Assembly: GCA_963674745.2 (NCBI GenBank)
Contig: CAXXDV010000001.1
Span: 2,272,001-2,336,000 of the forward strand
Length of the DNA stretch: 64,000 bases
Direction: 5' to 3'
DNA from: Desulfosudaceae bacterium
GTDB taxonomy: Bacteria; Desulfobacterota; Desulfobacteria; Desulfobacterales; Desulfosudaceae
In this document: positions 1 to 55,370 of the stretch, in pieces
Numbering within the stretch: the first letter of the stretch is position 1
Layout: each line of letters opens with the position of its first letter
Program-made: the position numbers and the translations under genes
Notes under the pieces: generated by a model
Database searches by the model: none
What the model was told of the DNA's origin: nothing
The model's input: the letters and a program-made list of their open reading frames with translations, nothing else

Positions 1-1026
1 CGGCCCCTGGGCATCCCCGCCTTGGAGGACAAACTTGTCCAGAAGGCGGTGGCCATGATCCTGACGGAGATATACGAACCGGATTTTCTGGATTGTTCGT
101 ACGGATACCGACCGGATAAAGGGGCCAAGGACGCGATCGGCGACCTGACGTTTCAGTTTCAGTTCGGCGTATTCGGCTATGTTGTGGAAGCGGATATCAA
201 AAGTTATTTTGATACCATTAACCATGATAAGCTGATGGCCATACTGGAGAAACGGATCAATGATCGGGCGTTCTTGCGGTTGATCAGAAAATGGCTGAAA
301 GCGGGCATCCTGCATCCGGACGGACAGGTCGAGCATCCGGTTACCGGGACGCCCCAGGGAGGACTCGTATCTCCCGTCCTGTCGAACATTTATCTGCATG
401 AGGTGCTGGATAAATGGTTCCAGGAGGTAGTCAAACCGAGGCTGGCAGGCCGTGCCATCATGTGCAGATATGCGGATGACTGGGTATGCGCCTTTCAATA
501 TCGGGAAGATGCGGACCGGTTCTATGATGTTCTTTCGAAACGCCTCGGCTGCTATGGTCTTGAGGTGGAGCCGAGCAAGACAAAGGTCATCCGGTTCAGC
601 CGATTCCAACCCGGCCGGGAGCGTGACAGGACGTTCACGTTTCTGGGGTTCGAATTTTACTGGTCAAAAGACCGCAAAGGTGTTGCCCGGGCACAGCGTC
701 GCACGGCTCCGGCCAAGCAACGTGAAGCCTTGGCGCGTATGAGAGATTGGTTGAAGAAGTCCCGGCATCTGCCGAAAAGACAAATCTTTGATGGGCTGAA
801 ACGTAAGCTGACCGGCCATTACAATTATTTTTATGTACGGGGGAATGCCCGTGCGGTATGGTCGTTTTACAGAGATGTGATCAGCTCGGCATTTAAATGG
901 CTGAATCGCAGAAGCCAGCGTAAAAGCTATAATTGGGAACGATTTAAGCAGGTCTTAGAATACGTAAAAATACCGAAACCGAAGCTGACGGAAAAGAAAC
1001 GTTTTCGCACGTGCGCGTTGAGCTAA
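1..1026 (+). CDS. ltrA: group II intron reverse transcriptase/maturase (5'-partial, no En domain)
   Basis: Open from base 1 (RPLGIPALEDK); GTPQGG and RYADD motifs and domain X (GHYNYF); ends without an HNH domain. Confidence 0.95.
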   Translation, partial: RPLGIPALEDKLVQKAVAMILTEIYEPDFLDCSYGYRPDKGAKDAIGDLTFQFQFGVFGYVVEADIKSYFDTINHDKLMAILEKRINDRAFLRLIRKWLKAGILHPDGQVEHPVTGTPQGGLVSPVLSNIYLHEVLDKWFQEVVKPRLAGRAIMCRYADDWVCAFQYREDADRFYDVLSKRLGCYGLEVEPSKTKVIRFSRFQPGRERDRTFTFLGFEFYWSKDRKGVARAQRRTAPAKQREALARMRDWLKKSRHLPKRQIFDGLKRKLTGHYNYFYVRGNARAVWSFYRDVISSAFKWLNRRSQRKSYNWERFKQVLEYVKIPKPKLTEKKRFRTCALS

Positions 1027-1126
1027 GCCGACACGGAAGCGAGTATAACCGAGGAACCGGATGCGGGAAAACCGCACGTCCGGGACTGTGTGGGGGGTGC
1101 CGGGTAACCGGCATTCCTACCACGAC
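1..1126 (+). mobile_element. 3' part of a group II intron (RT ORF, domains V and VI); 5' end outside window
   Basis: The RT ORF is followed by DV GAACCGGATGCGGGAAAACCGCACGTCCGGGAC (~1054-1086), a DVI hairpin with bulged A at 1119, and a terminal AC at 1125-1126. Confidence 0.93.
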
Positions 1127-1141
1127 TACGCAAAGGATATT

Positions 1142-1588
1142 ATGGACGAGAAAGAATTTTGGAATATCTTGGGAATGCTCAACTGGGATAAAACGGGTGA
1201 TGATGAAGCAGTCGTTGAGCCAGTTGTAAGCTATCTATCCAACCAATCGGACGAAGATATATTCCAATTTGAAGAGTTGCTCGCTCAAAAGCTATATGCG
1301 CTTGATACAAAAGCACATGCTAAAGAAATTGGTGAGGACGCATACATAAATGATGATCAATATTTTTCAGTTGATTGTTTTTTATATGCACGGTGTGTAG
1401 TCGTCGCAAACGGTAAGGAATTGTTCGAAGATGCTCTAAACAATCCATCAGAATTTCCTAAAGATATGGAGTTCGAAGCTATATTGTACGTTGCTCAAGA
1501 TGCTTATGAACGAAAAAATGGGAAAAAATGGAATTATGTATCCCCCACCAGTTATGAAACATTTAAAAATGTTGGTGGTTGGGAATAA
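1142..1588 (+). CDS. DUF4240-like protein (cassette 1)
   Basis: MDEKEFWNIL...FLYARCVVVANG resembles DUF4240; ATG follows AAGGA. Confidence 0.75.
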   Translation: MDEKEFWNILGMLNWDKTGDDEAVVEPVVSYLSNQSDEDIFQFEELLAQKLYALDTKAHAKEIGEDAYINDDQYFSVDCFLYARCVVVANGKELFEDALNNPSEFPKDMEFEAILYVAQDAYERKNGKKWNYVSPTSYETFKNVGGWE

Positions 1589-7079: not shown

Positions 7080-7562
7080 ATGAAAAAGATATTTTTTTTA
7101 ATCATTCTCATTTTAGTGCTTAGTGATGCAAATGCGACTGAGATCGTTGACGTAAATACAAGTATCCTTGGAAAGGACGTAAACACCCCTCTTGAATTAT
7201 TCTCGGTGGGAGAAAATAATAAAAGTACCCTTCTTTATCCCACCAACATTCAATTAGATATTGAGAACAATTTATGCAAAGCTGTATCCATGCTTTTCCC
7301 AGACAATAAAATCAAACTTGATGAAATGAGAAAGATCATAAATACAAAGTATCCCGATACCGAATATATTGTAGGAGATAAATTTTGGGCTTGGCGGGTT
7401 GAAAATGGACATTTTACAATAACAATGTTCCCCCAAGAAGATTGTATCGAGGATTATAATTACATTAGAGTTGTTTACTTGATGTGGGTTAATGAAGATA
7501 TTGATGTTATAGTAGAAAGAGGCGAAAAAATTCTAAATTATCTACAGAAAAATATAGAGTAA
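7080..7562 (+). CDS. putative secreted protein (cassette 10)
   Basis: MKKIFFLIILILVLSDANA signal peptide. Confidence 0.7.
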   Translation: MKKIFFLIILILVLSDANATEIVDVNTSILGKDVNTPLELFSVGENNKSTLLYPTNIQLDIENNLCKAVSMLFPDNKIKLDEMRKIINTKYPDTEYIVGDKFWAWRVENGHFTITMFPQEDCIEDYNYIRVVYLMWVNEDIDVIVERGEKILNYLQKNIE

Positions 7563-50677: not shown

Positions 50678-52451
50678 GGGGGTTGCTGTTTAGTGTAATG
50701 TTAATCCGATATATTTCATAAAGTTTTTTTTCAAGATCAAAAGAGGCGGTTAACAAGCGAGCCTGGCTATGGGAACTGAAAATAATCGGTTGGGCCATTT
50801 CCGGGAAGAAGTTGCCAGTGATTTTCTGCGTTGTTTCGTTTAATGCTAATAGTGATTCCAATTGGTTGTCCGTCTTGATGAGATAGGCCAATGTTTTTCC
50901 ATCAGGGCTGAATATGGGACGGGAAATTGATTCTAGAAGCACCGGCTGCTGTTTGATCTCATATGTTGCTTCTTTGTTGTTCACAACCATTATCAGCTTA
51001 TTGTTATCCATAGCCCGATATGCAAGTTTTTTGGAGTCCGGGCTGAAAACCGGCAACCCCATGGCATCATAAGCCTTTTGGGGTTTTCCGTCTGTTATCA
51101 TGTACCATTTCCCCCGGTTTTGGGCCGGATAAGCGAGCTTTTGTGAATCCGGGCTGAAAATCGGTCTTCCGACGACACCAAAAGGTTTCCCCGCCCGCCC
51201 GTTTTTTACCATGAGCCATTTCCCTTCAGCCATTGCCCGATAAATGAGTGTTTTTGAGTCCGGGCTGAAAACCGGTTCATCAATCATATCATATGCATTA
51301 CCAATTGTCCCGTCATGTATCATTTTCATTTTAACACCAGCAGGTGTCCGGATTACGGCCAAATAGGCATAATGCCGCGAATCCGGACTGAATACCACCA
51401 TGCCGACTCGATCAAAAAGCGGTCCGGTTTTTTTGCCGATGACATTCCGGAACTTTTCCCCTTCAATCCTGGAAAAGGCCATTTGAGACGCGTCCGGGCT
51501 GAAAATCGGCGGTATCAGATGCGGGGCATTAGTGGCAGTGCTGTCCTGAAAAAAGATATTCTGAGGCACAAAATCACCGGCTGGGATTTTGTCGTTGTTG
51601 TCAATTACCCAGAACTTTTTATCTTTGATTGCGATATGGGCGAGATGGACGGAGTCGGAACTCCATGTTAAACCTGCGGCTTTGTCATAAGGTCCTTTTT
51701 TAAAACCATCATGGATAACATACCAGGCGTTGTTTTGTGATACAGAATAGGCTGTTTTTTTTGCGTCAGGACTGAAAGAGATCTCTTTTATGCTGTCAAA
51801 CAACTCGCTTTCTTTTCCGTTGATTATAATCCGGGCGCCTTTTTCCGACTTGTTCCGTGTCAGATATATGATGGACTGGGCGTCCGGGCTGAACACAACA
51901 CCTGTTACCTGGTCGATCATGTCGTATGGCTTCAGCCGGTTACCATTGAGCACCACAAACTGTTTGTTTTTGTCCTGTGCGATAAATACGGCATGCTCAC
52001 CGCTGGGGCTGAATCGCAGGCAGCAGGCACCATCATAACCGATCGATTCTTTACCATCTATTACTACGAAATATTTACCATCCTTGTCGGCGATGTAGCC
52101 GAAACGGTTTCTGGCAGGTGAAAAAATCGGATAGCCTCTGGCGATATGGTCATATACTTTTTCCGCCTTACTATTTATTATCACCCCCATGCCTTTTTCG
52201 CGGGCAACTACATAGGCAATATCGTGCATGTCGGGACTGAAAATTAAAGAGTCCGAATATACCAATGTCCTTTTGGGTTGTTTCGTGAGGAGTTCTGCCT
52301 CAACCAATGGGGTGGCGGGCGATGCAAAGGGCTGTACTCCCGGCAGGCAGACTGAAAACAGGCAGAATATGCACAGCAGGACGGGACGTAAACCGTGTGG
52401 TATGTCATTCCACCAGCCGTTGCCTTCTGATTTAATGTCTTTTTTTATCAT
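50661..52451 (-). CDS. PD40/TolB-like beta-propeller repeat protein
   Basis: About 10 P.FSPDS..LAY repeats; signal-like N-terminus. Confidence 0.82.
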   Translation of the reverse strand: MIKKDIKSEGNGWWNDIPHGLRPVLLCIFCLFSVCLPGVQPFASPATPLVEAELLTKQPKRTLVYSDSLIFSPDMHDIAYVVAREKGMGVIINSKAEKVYDHIARGYPIFSPARNRFGYIADKDGKYFVVIDGKESIGYDGACCLRFSPSGEHAVFIAQDKNKQFVVLNGNRLKPYDMIDQVTGVVFSPDAQSIIYLTRNKSEKGARIIINGKESELFDSIKEISFSPDAKKTAYSVSQNNAWYVIHDGFKKGPYDKAAGLTWSSDSVHLAHIAIKDKKFWVIDNNDKIPAGDFVPQNIFFQDSTATNAPHLIPPIFSPDASQMAFSRIEGEKFRNVIGKKTGPLFDRVGMVVFSPDSRHYAYLAVIRTPAGVKMKMIHDGTIGNAYDMIDEPVFSPDSKTLIYRAMAEGKWLMVKNGRAGKPFGVVGRPIFSPDSQKLAYPAQNRGKWYMITDGKPQKAYDAMGLPVFSPDSKKLAYRAMDNNKLIMVVNNKEATYEIKQQPVLLESISRPIFSPDGKTLAYLIKTDNQLESLLALNETTQKITGNFFPEMAQPIIFSSHSQARLLTASFDLEKKLYEIYRINITLNSNPHENRP

Positions 52452-52476
52452 GGGCGTGTTTGAATAGATGAAGTTC

Positions 52477-53160
52477 TTAATCGTTCATGGTGTAGCATTC
52501 CCTGATGCTTTCCGTGAGGGTCTGGCTCATATAGTCGGCAATGTTACGGTCATAAACGGCAGTATGTTCAAACGTTTTTTGGGCCATTAAATAGCGGGTA
52601 TTAAGAGAAATTTTTCCTTCTGTGCGTGTCATTTCGTCCAGAACGGTGGTGTAGTCATCGGGATTGACCACCGGTGTGACCCGGATAAAATTCTTTGCTG
52701 CCGCCCGCAGCATACAGGGGCCGCCGATATCGATGTTGCCCCGGGCCTGCTCGGGTGTGACATCCGGTTGCGCAATGGTACGGGCAAAGGGGTAGAGGTT
52801 CACCACTACCATATCGATGGTGATGGCGCCGGTACGTGCCATATCTCGGATGTGGTCAGCGTTGTATGTTTCCGTAAGCAGACCAAGATAGATTTTAAAA
52901 TCAAGGGTTTTTACCAGGCCGCCCTGCGTCTCCGGTTGCCCGGTATAGTCTGCGACCTGGGTCAGTCGCGATTCGGATTTTTCCCCCAAAAATTTTTGAA
53001 TGGCTGAAAATGTACCCCCGGTGGAAAGAATATTAATGTTCGGATTGATATTGATAAGGCCTGATACAAAACCATCCAATCCGGTTTTGTCTGAAACACT
53101 GACCAGCAGATTGTTGATTGGAATCAGGTCGTCTATACGGCTGACAACGTTAATGCTCAT
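52477..53160 (-). CDS. purH: stand-alone IMP cyclohydrolase domain (N-terminal half of PurH)
   Basis: SVSDKTG, STGGT, VKTL, VNLYPF, IDIGGP, AAKN; only 227 aa. Confidence 0.85.
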   Translation of the reverse strand: MSINVVSRIDDLIPINNLLVSVSDKTGLDGFVSGLININPNINILSTGGTFSAIQKFLGEKSESRLTQVADYTGQPETQGGLVKTLDFKIYLGLLTETYNADHIRDMARTGAITIDMVVVNLYPFARTIAQPDVTPEQARGNIDIGGPCMLRAAAKNFIRVTPVVNPDDYTTVLDEMTRTEGKISLNTRYLMAQKTFEHTAVYDRNIADYMSQTLTESIRECYTMND

Positions 53161-53483
53161 GGTCGTTTACCTCCATAGTTTCGTACTTAGTAAGGATGAT
53201 ATGCGTTCCTGTGATTCTTTTCTGATGTTACCGCAAAAGCATGGTTGACTGCGAGCTGTTTTTTTAATATCAGACTATTCCTGCCGATTTTTACTATTTT
53301 GTACTGTTAAATAGGACAGTGTCTAATTATTTAGGACAAACTATCGGTTTTTTATCGTGCCTGTTAAACGGTACAGGACAAATCTTAATTTTCATGGGCT
53401 AAGTTACGCCTCTGGGTTTAATTTTGTGAAATTATTTCAGCATTTTATTTTTTTATTAACAAAACGGGGTTTTTACCATTCAT

Positions 53484-53499
53484 TGGCCCGGTAATTGCT
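53484..53499 (+). promoter_or_regulatory. sigma54 (-24/-12) promoter
   Basis: TGGCCCGGTAATTGCT, GG-N10-GC. Confidence 0.65.
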
Positions 53500-53509
53500 T
53501 TAGATATTC

Positions 53510-53752
53510 GAAAGATTACCTGCCCAGCCAGGTATGAGAAAATTAATAAAGAGGTGTTAATTAAGTTATTCAGGAAGCCTGTTAGCCGCGTTTGCCTGCC
53601 GCCAAGGCTTCCTTATTGTACGGTGTGTCTGATTCGTTCATCAGCATCTCCCCAGGTGCTACCGGCACCCCCCCCTCCTCCAGCCGGGTGAGTGAATCAG
53701 GCCACCTACACTTTATAAGCTGTTGCGTATTCCGATACGCAACAGCTTTTTT
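53510..53752 (+). ncRNA. putative structured small RNA with C-rich loops
   Basis: Lies between a sigma54 promoter and a +strand terminator; hairpin plus three-way junction whose G-U pairs favour the + strand. Confidence 0.6.
53717..53752 (+). terminator. intrinsic terminator
   Basis: AAGCTGTTGCGTAT-TCCG-ATACGCAACAGCTT followed by a T-tract. Confidence 0.85.
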
Positions 53753-53803
53753 GTTTTATGGCTTCGTAAAAAGTCCAAAACAACCCCTTGAATCCTTTTG
53801 TAA

Positions 53804-54445
53804 TTAAGCTTTGCCTTCGTATTCAGTCAGGAAGCGGCTGAAAAATCGTTCCATGAATTCGTGACGGGCCTGGGCCATTTCCCGGCCGCTTGCCGTCAGC
53901 ATTCTGTCTTTGACCCAGCGGAGCTTGACCCGGTATTCCCGGTAGCCGGTATCGTTTTCCGAATATGACGGAACCCGCTCCACGTTGATATCCGGATTGT
54001 GCAGGCAGGCGCCCAGTTCCCCGGCGAAAAGGTAGGCTCTGGCAATGCCGATGGCGCCGATGGCATCCAGTTTATCGGCGTCGAATACGACCTTCGCTTC
54101 CGGGGTTTCAGGTTCAGGCGGTTTCCGAAAACGATGCGAGGCAATGCAGTGAACAATGTTGTTTTTTCGGGCCTCAGAAAAAGGGAATTTCTCCAGTATG
54201 GCCTGGGCCATCTGGGCCCCTTTTTGAGCATGGCATATGGAACCATTGGCACTGTCCTGGTAGCAGCGGCCGATGTCGTGCAACAAGGCCCCGGCCACCG
54301 CTACTTCCAGATCAACCCCTTCGAGAGCGCCAAGGGTTTTTGTCAGGTTCACGACACGTCTTGTGTGTTCCCAATCGTGGCTGCCCCGACCGGCCAGAAA
54401 ATTTTTTTTGGCGATTTCGGCAATGGCCGATTCATGTTTTGTCAT
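53804..54445 (-). CDS. HD-domain phosphohydrolase
   Basis: H...LLHD...DADKLDAIGAIG. Confidence 0.9.
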   Translation of the reverse strand: MTKHESAIAEIAKKNFLAGRGSHDWEHTRRVVNLTKTLGALEGVDLEVAVAGALLHDIGRCYQDSANGSICHAQKGAQMAQAILEKFPFSEARKNNIVHCIASHRFRKPPEPETPEAKVVFDADKLDAIGAIGIARAYLFAGELGACLHNPDINVERVPSYSENDTGYREYRVKLRWVKDRMLTASGREMAQARHEFMERFFSRFLTEYEGKA

Positions 54446-55370
54446 GGGCCGTAAGTGACCGGAAATACGTGGCGTCGTTTTTTTCTATCGCTTCCAAATG
54501 GTTTTCTGAAAGCAGATTCGGGATCTGTTTTTGAATTTTTTCCATCGGCACTCTCAGGCCTGCGGCCATATCTTCTATTGTTACCGGTCGACGCGCCGCC
54601 ATTTCCAGGATAGCCGGCACAATATCAAGGCTGGAATCGTCGGATACGGTGGAAAAAACAGTGTCCCGTTGCCGATTCATCCCCAATACGTCATAAAAAT
54701 AGTCGATCATGTCTTCACCGGCCTGCTTGGCTTCAGCCTCCGGAGCCGGTCGGACCGTAGTGTTGATATAAATGTCCGTCGGGGTGATTTTATCCACCAG
54801 GGGTTTGAAACGGGCGGCATCTTCTGTTGAGGCGTTAACGCCGTCCATGATTAATATTTCCAGCCATAAGCGACCGGAGAAACAGTCCGCGAATTCAGCC
54901 AGACCTTCAAACATCCGGTCAAACCCGATATCCTTGTGCGGCCGGTTGATGGTCTCAAACAACCCCGGGTTATGGGCATCGAGTGACGGCACCACGATAT
55001 CGGCTGCCATCAGCGCTTCGCGGACAGCTGCTTCTGACAGTAGCGAACTGTTGGTCAGTACAGCTACCGGTAATTCCGTCCGTTTTTTTATGCCTCGAAT
55101 TACGGCCCCGAGGTTACTGTTGAGGGTGGGCTCGCCGGATCCCGCAATGGTGATGCAGTCGGCCTTTACGCCCCGGTCCAGGGTTTGCTCAAGTTGCGAA
55201 AAAACTTCCGCGGTGTCTCTGTACGGGCGTCTTTTTGTCGTTTTTGCGGTTGTCCTGCCCAGCTGACAATAGATACAGTCATAAGTGCAGATCTTGGCCG
55301 GAAGCAGATCAATACCCAGAGAGCGCCCCAGCCGCCTGGACGGAACAGGCCCATAGATACAGGTCTTCAT
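54432..55370 (-). CDS. radical SAM protein
   Basis: GPVPSRRLGRSLG, CTYDCIYC, GEPTL. Confidence 0.9.
   Translation of the reverse strand: MKTCIYGPVPSRRLGRSLGIDLLPAKICTYDCIYCQLGRTTAKTTKRRPYRDTAEVFSQLEQTLDRGVKADCITIAGSGEPTLNSNLGAVIRGIKKRTELPVAVLTNSSLLSEAAVREALMAADIVVPSLDAHNPGLFETINRPHKDIGFDRMFEGLAEFADCFSGRLWLEILIMDGVNASTEDAARFKPLVDKITPTDIYINTTVRPAPEAEAKQAGEDMIDYFYDVLGMNRQRDTVFSTVSDDSSLDIVPAILEMAARRPVTIEDMAAGLRVPMEKIQKQIPNLLSENHLEAIEKNDATYFRSLTAHDKT

Follow-up and report, generated by a model that had tools for sequence, protein, structure and literature searches.

A candidate sigma-54-dependent small RNA with a C-rich loop in the Desulfosudaceae

The gap between the purH-like and HD-domain genes

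The window analysed here, a stretch of 64,000 nucleotides from the genome of a Desulfosudaceae bacterium, contains a gap of 643 bp at 53161-53803, both flanking genes of which lie on the minus strand. A preliminary description of this DNA had proposed that the gap holds an undescribed regulatory RNA, which is read from the plus strand, controlled by an enhancer-binding protein, and exposes a loop complementary to Shine-Dalgarno sequences. The features of the locus on which the following analysis is based are:

Flanking gene, minus strand: purH-like, 227 aa, with MGS and AICARFT-N-terminal domains (Pfam)
Flanking gene, minus strand: HD-domain gene, 213 aa
53300-53338, no strand assigned: tandem dyads, two abutting 19-bp elements TGT-N13-ACA (53300-53318 and 53320-53338)
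53361-53380, no strand assigned: third, weaker repeat, CTGTTAAA...ACAGGACA, with a PWM score of only 8.9
53484-53499, plus strand: probable -24/-12 promoter of the sigma-54 type, TGGCCCG-GTAA-TTGCT
53510-53757, plus strand: predicted RNA of about 248 nt, based on the fold and on inferred ends (the T-run being the 3' end)
53517-53613, plus strand: variable 5' part with hairpins at 53517-53534, 53541-53562 and 53572-53613 (RNAfold)
53618-53709, plus strand: three-way junction with a long basal helix, arm 1 (53643-53660) and arm 2 (53662-53687)
53667-53682, plus strand: C-rich loop ACCCCCCCCUCCUCCA, C8-UCCUCC, unpaired in the MFE fold
53717-53757, plus strand: intrinsic terminator composed of a hairpin with 14 bp (53717-53748) and a T-run on its 3' side

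The start of the RNA near 53510 is inferred and lies about 11 nt past the -12 box. Folding of the plus strand from 53510 to 53760 with RNAfold yielded an MFE of -92.8 kcal/mol as opposed to -60.7 +/- 4.3 kcal/mol for shuffled sequences (z -7.5), none of the 200 shuffles folding equally well, while the fold of the minus strand is weaker (z -5.4). The predicted structure recovers the three 5' hairpins, the three-way junction, an unpaired loop of 16 nt and the terminator hairpin. It agrees with the junction arms as they had been read by eye, namely AGCATCT-CCCC-AGGTGCT at 53643-53660 and CCGGC-ACCCCCCCCTCCTCCA-GCCGG at 53662-53687, and the plus-strand terminator recognised at the same time is the sole terminator-like site in 53000-54000. 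The loop ACCCCCCCCUCCUCCA is complementary to ribosome-binding sites of the GGAGG type and to those with G runs.

The claim that no convincing gene follows the promoter was likewise borne out: the ORF of 8 codons noted at 53534-53560 is present, and the comparison of seven orthologous loci revealed no conserved ORF 3' of the promoter. Of two longer ORFs that overlap the RNA region (45 and 71 codons), neither has a Pfam match. When the region 52000-55000 was searched against Rfam 15 at E values of up to 10, the best matches reached at most 22 bits, compared to family thresholds of 35-100 bits, and fell on the terminator hairpin or were due to chance; in the whole window, only one tRNA passed its threshold. 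The element occurs in a single copy in its own genome, and no published description of the RNA was found in the openly accessible full-text literature searched. The RNA matches neither a known family nor a repeat and is a new family of an already known type of regulator.

Conservation, structure and expression of the RNA

A BLAST search against 60 relatives recovered the junction in G002, a member of the same genus (85% identity), and in G003 from another genus (74% identity), in both cases adjoining the HD gene; a further match in G053 lies inside a coding region and was rejected as a chance match. The covariance model built from these three sequences (window, G002 and G003) detected one copy each in 7 of the 13 genomes of the Desulfosudaceae, representing four of the six genera, with scores of 41-117 bits. 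No match was found in 145 genomes of the class outside the family, and the two matches among 151 genomes of the order both belong to the genus of the window; the RNA is restricted to the family. The family genomes without a match are 71-99% complete, including G007 and G012 of one genus with 99% and 95%, and a broader model (R2) applied to five of these six genomes found nothing better than an E value of 0.7. With the filters switched off, the covariance model matched 3 of 28 HD-gene loci of other genomes, all of them from family members, and the inspection of 12 HD loci by hand revealed no variant RNA. A pattern scan of metagenomes for the conserved helix strand returned at least 120 stretches, and the 80 loci listed from it gave only chance matches to the model, the best with 13 bits (E 0.62).

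In the alignment of the seven sequences, 89.6% of the cells are paired. Nine of the 31 pairs changed on both sides, as opposed to a mean of 4.7 in shuffled alignments (1 of 500 reaching 9) and 0-2 in slid controls, for an alignment that comprises only seven sequences and was fitted to the model, which favours structure. The covariation that the preliminary description proposed to look for in relatives is present, with a conserved structure and nine covarying pairs among seven copies. The orientation of the RNA also agrees with the earlier reading, as 17 G-U pairs compared to 3 A-C pairs show that it is read from the plus strand; matches of the model on the opposite strand score 15-28 bits versus 41-117 bits, the model itself having been built on the plus strand.

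Of the structured elements of the RNA, only the three-way junction is conserved among the orthologues. The C-rich loop is unpaired in the MFE folds of all seven, is 14-26 nt long, and contains C7-UCC in each case. The 5' hairpin AGGAAGCCT/AGGCTTCCT pointed out earlier does exist at 53572-53580 and 53605-53613; it is not conserved in the relatives, the 5' part not being alignable even within the genus. G002 has, in place of the hairpin at 53572-53613, a different hairpin whose loop is a second C-rich one, and the terminator loop of G002 is C-rich as well.

That the region is not a gene at all, its structure being a product of chance, the relic of a repeat or mobile element, or part of a small protein gene, is highly improbable. 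The overlapping ORFs of 45 and 71 codons and the low-complexity C run would fit such an explanation; against it stand the lack of Pfam matches for these ORFs, the single copy of the element, and the synteny and covariation across four genera. In addition, no reading frame stays intact across the indels of the C run, and as the changes in loop length are not multiples of three, a coding reading of the C-rich loop is excluded. We consider it very likely that the gap encodes a real structured non-coding RNA gene.

The RNA has a length of 140-250 nt in the relatives compared to about 250 nt here, and the way in which it ends differs. A separate terminator hairpin is restricted to the genus of the window, where it is kept in G002, whereas a T-run directly follows the junction in four genomes, so that the basal helix serves as the terminator in most relatives. 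Overall, a T-run terminates six of the seven copies, and in these six genomes the next gene is convergent. The exception is G009, in which the T-run is absent and an ORF of 256 aa on the same strand starts 55 nt downstream of the RNA, between the RNA and the HD gene (L041, 713-1483, minus strand), no terminator separating it from the RNA. The encoded protein has an HExxH motif and a hydrophobic N-terminus, and neither a Pfam family nor a homologue in the genome of the window was found for it. The missing T-run together with the downstream ORF suggests that the RNA may be a leader in this genome.

In 8 of the 12 inspected HD loci of other Desulfobacterales (L051, L054-L059 and L067), the purH-like gene starts about 18 nt past the stop codon of the HD gene on the same strand, which makes the RNA module an insertion that split a former HD-purH-like operon. 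At a locus of another MAG (L047), the spacer between HD and purH is about 400 nt long and contains repeated GGAAGC-type hairpins (at about 600-720, reverse complement), the C-loop RNA being absent. On the minus strand of the window, the purH-like gene has three pairs of sigma-70-like hexamers, all weak, at 53296-53459, over the dyads and the AT-rich spacer, and because of this overlap, the binding of an activator might also affect the purH-like gene. The insertion into a former operon, the overlapping hexamers, and the junction of G009 with its same-strand ORF are all compatible with a cis-acting element, either a leader for a downstream gene or a convergent transcription unit or insulator by which the HD and purH-like genes would be kept apart and modulated. 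However, the T-run terminator and the convergent next gene in six of seven genomes argue against this, the G009 ORF has no homologue in the genome of the window, and what is conserved is the RNA structure rather than an overlap with the neighbours. We regard a cis-acting element as improbable and favour, with moderate confidence, a stand-alone trans-acting sRNA driven by sigma-54 and an activator, the C-rich loop of which would block Shine-Dalgarno sequences.

Two RNA runs (X1 and X2) were compared with the locus, and one of them, a marine-sediment metatranscriptome, contains a contig of 332 nt (depth 6.4) that matches 53588-53757 with four differences (98% identity). The contig carries adapter sequence at the 53588 side and, past 53757, continues for 141 nt that do not resemble the window. 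For the flanking genes, the two runs contain short pieces only; the five listed differ from the window in 5-15% of their letters (3 of 33 and 7 of 47 positions at the extremes), the longest in 11 of 235. A region nearly identical to that of the RNA thus occurs in an RNA library, which is a weak hint of expression; the contig may also derive from DNA or from read-through. The run X2 covers no part of the RNA, but a lack of cover is no evidence against expression.

The sigma-54-type promoter, the upstream dyads and candidate activators

The -24/-12 promoter named in the preliminary description is found at 53484-53499 as TGGCCCGGTAATTGCT, with the exact GG-N10-GC spacing. Promoters recognised by sigma-54 have the consensus TGGCACG-N4-TTGCW, with which the TGG-N8-TTG box of the orthologues agrees. 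This box and the G at position 7 are invariant in all seven orthologues, although the flanking bases diverge. The -12 dinucleotide is GC in two of the seven, both from the genus of the window, GT in four, and GA in one; most copies therefore have a weak -12 box, a point against the sigma-54 reading. The box is located 56-151 nt ahead of the junction in the seven loci, the transcribed 5' part in between being divergent, and a sigma-70-like promoter on the plus strand was not found in 53000-54000. We consider it quite likely that the box is a sigma-54 promoter, and synthesis of the RNA would depend on RpoN and an activator.

Repeated motifs upstream of the promoter had been noticed before and are present, AGGACA at 53313-53318, 53333-53338 and 53375-53380, and CTGTTAAA at 53304-53311 and 53361-53368, but they are better described as two 19-bp dyads and a weaker third element. 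The half-sites of the dyads are TGTACT/AGGACA and TGTCTA/AGGACA, with a distance of 20 bp from centre to centre. All seven orthologues have such tandem dyads, which precede the -24 box by 120-190 bp of AT-rich DNA, within the range of about 80-200 bp typical of activator sites; box and dyads keep a constant distance, although the spacers cannot be aligned. A clear counterpart of the third repeat (53361-53380) was not found in the relatives. The dyads at 53300-53338 are presumed to be a putative UAS for a sigma-54 activator.

The two dyads of the window are the top two sites genome-wide for a PWM trained on these same sites, and 27 sites in the genome of 5.5 Mb score at least 14.1. Six of these 27 are located upstream of sigma-54-type boxes of the form GG-N10-GC or TGG-N8-TTG, two being the window's own pair from the PWM training. 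The remaining four comprise one site at contig 3:1623180, two in a Che-like cluster, and one before one of the two further C-loop RNA genes described below. As the boxes in the Che-like cluster have no leading T and the -12 element at 1623180 reads TTGG, three of these sites fall outside the control pattern TGGYNNG-N4-TTG. The genome-wide pairing of dyads and promoters is not enriched, a dyad scoring at least 11 being found upstream of 5 of 514 sigma-54-like sites compared to 4 in the control window. From the six sites ahead of sigma-54-type boxes, the dyad class nevertheless looks like a genuine activator site.

The site on contig 3 at 1623180-1623400 (L246, about 7181-7400) consists of the perfect dyad TGTCCTGAATATCAGGACA, with TGGCATATTTTTTGG following about 190 nt further on; 3' of it lie a small ORF, whose start resembles a signal peptide, and then two DUF2284 genes. 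In G002 and G003, the dyad and the promoter are not conserved ahead of the adjacent DUF2284 genes. The Che-like cluster, also on contig 3 (about 84000-100300, L247), encodes CheA, CheW, CheR, CheB, CheD, two MCPs and a receiver protein, is preceded by genes for a PAS hybrid kinase and an NtrC-type activator, and contains two TGTCCTGAAAC[AG]TTAGACA dyads; on the minus strand, a GG-N10-GC box follows each of them.

The genome encodes one rpoN gene and 42 genes for sigma-54 activators, none of the latter within the window. The NtrC-type response regulator beside the two similar dyads of the Che-like cluster, at 96.1-97.5 kb of contig 3, is the obvious activator candidate. Orthologues with at least 65% identity are encoded in G001, G002, G005, G007, G010, G011 and G012, and the best match has only 47-58% identity in G003, G004, G006, G008 and G009. 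This distribution does not match that of the RNA, the orthologues occurring in a genus without the RNA and being missing from the RNA-bearing G003, G008 and G009.

Further candidates for C-loop RNAs were observed. Two paralogous sRNA gene candidates are located in the same genome on the plus strand, at about 2355133-2355340 of contig 1 and about 1737116-1737325 of contig 3 (L304 and L305). Both have the sigma-54-type box TGGCAYGCTTCTTGA (TGGCAYG-N4-TTGA), GGAGGA in their 5' portion, and a long hairpin (about 125 nt) that ends in a C-rich loop of about 30 nt. One of them has, 103 bp upstream, a dyad of the same class as those in the window. Neither matched an Rfam family at E values of up to 1, and BLAST confines both to this genome. 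In G001 (L307, about 840-1180, minus strand), the dyad TGTCTAATGATTCAGGACA is followed by GGCATGTTTTTTGC and by a hairpin with a GGCCUCCAA (CCUCC) loop, with a gene starting about 200-210 nt beyond it; the hairpin may belong to another member of the regulon or to a leader. A more extensive interpretation would be that at least three sigma-54 C-loop sRNAs on two unrelated scaffolds are controlled by one NtrC-type regulator, possibly that of the Che-like cluster, via one dyad class, forming a Qrr-like but Hfq-independent layer that silences genes with poly-G Shine-Dalgarno sequences. We consider this doubtful; if it were true, the silenced genes would be a small class, many of them encoding large surface or envelope proteins.

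Proposed mode of action and relation to known regulators

The genome contains a subclass of genes with runs of G6-G10 as Shine-Dalgarno sequences. G runs of at least 6 are found at positions -22 to -2 of 70 out of 4988 crude gene starts, compared to 13 and 21 in control windows, and C runs in 8. The CCUCC core of the loop is that of the 3' tail of the 16S rRNA. As any CCUCC loop matches most ribosome-binding sites, complementarity alone says little. The duplex energies for 5401 crude initiation regions average -9.3 +/- 4.1 kcal/mol, and the best duplexes at G-run ribosome-binding sites belong to genes for large FG-GAP/GEVED surface proteins, an AMP-binding enzyme, a sugar transferase, DctP, DUF1302, LemA, and an ABC exporter. 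The target prediction proposed in the preliminary description yielded candidates with G runs by duplex energy, but the test of their conservation was mostly negative, as among the three top candidates checked only a protein of 190 aa keeps the extended complementarity GGAGGAGGG, and only within the genus. The predicted targets are leads only. Hfq (PF17209) was not found in the genome, which is 99.96% complete.

The observations on the locus can be combined into the following model. An NtrC-type activator would bind the tandem dyads at 53300-53338, loop over the AT-rich spacer, and open the sigma-54 promoter at 53484-53499, and transcription would stop at the plus-strand terminator. In the resulting RNA, the three-way junction would keep the C-rich loop of 14-26 nt with its CCUCC core single-stranded, and the loop could then pair with Shine-Dalgarno sequences of the GGAGG or G-run type in some of the mRNAs, the translation of which would be blocked, probably without Hfq. 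As proposed for the cuckoo/alpha-r14 RNAs (PMC4615179; PMC10746234), translational repression through occlusion of the ribosome-binding site appears to be a plausible mode of action, to which we give a slight preference. The overall reading of the preliminary description is supported by the dyads, the -24/-12 box, the structured RNA with a C-rich loop, and the terminator, as each of these elements withstands the comparison with six orthologues.

Alternatively, the RNA could be a real sigma-54 transcript with a partner other than mRNA ribosome-binding sites: the C-rich loop would bind or titrate a poly(C)-binding protein or G-rich RNA, or the long perfect helix would be the functional part, as a site for RNase III or another protein. 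The sequence of the basal helix is conserved beyond what pairing needs, given that 4 of its 20 pairs are invariant and in another 6 the changes are confined to one side, which together with the lack of a conserved target among the three candidates checked and of a detectable Hfq lends this explanation some weight. However, a candidate for such a binding protein was not found, the loop in every case combines a UCC/CCUCC core with long C runs that complement the G-run Shine-Dalgarno class of the genome, and the known RNAs with C-rich loops act by pairing (PMC4615179; PMC10746234). A partner of this kind is in our estimation unlikely, and the trans-acting sRNA that pairs with Shine-Dalgarno sequences remains the preferred reading.

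Post-transcriptional control in the sulfate-reducing Desulfobacterales is almost uncharted, and their genomes encode dozens of sigma-54 activators, the outputs of which are unknown. A conserved sRNA with a promoter, an enhancer, a seed and a terminator would be a concrete and testable output for one such activator, and its covariance model could seed a new Rfam family. The RNA would also represent a case of C-rich-loop regulation in a genome in which Hfq was not found. The finding does not introduce a new principle.

Among the known regulators, Qrr depends on Hfq, whereas Hfq was not found in the genome of the window. Sigma-54-dependent sRNAs such as Qrr and GlmY/Z are well known, and one activator is shared by several Qrr sRNAs; in Desulfovibrio vulgaris, a sulfate reducer, the response regulator DVU0679 targets Dv_sRNA2 (PMC3333781). 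Like Qrr1-5 (activated by LuxO), GlmY/GlmZ (GlrR) and Dv_sRNA2, the RNA described here appears as a stand-alone sRNA gene with a -24/-12 promoter and upstream activator sites. Unlike these, it has a three-way junction scaffold with a C-rich loop as the seed, is not matched in Rfam, and has no activator gene adjacent to it or elsewhere in the window.

With respect to the loop, RoxS/RsaE of the Firmicutes and the 6C RNA of the Actinobacteria have C-rich unpaired regions that pair with G-rich ribosome-binding sites, largely without Hfq. The RNA of the window differs from them in fold, promoter type and taxon, and has no Rfam match.

The cuckoo/alpha-r14 RNAs (CcsR/RSs0680, NfeR1) of the Alphaproteobacteria, a different phylum, likewise expose C-rich loops of the anti-Shine-Dalgarno type. 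They are described as hairpins with variable stems, the loops of which carry an ultraconserved anti-Shine-Dalgarno motif of the CCUCCUCCC type, and have been proposed to occlude the ribosome-binding sites of many mRNAs (PMC4615179; PMC10746234). Their promoters are described as dependent on RpoHI/II or LsrB, PnfeR1 having no sigma-54 signature, unlike the promoter proposed here. In cuckoo RNAs, two to four adjacent simple hairpins each carry CCUCCUCCC (PMC4615179), whereas the RNA of the window has one conserved C-rich loop, with runs of C7-15, which is placed on a three-way junction and varies among relatives.
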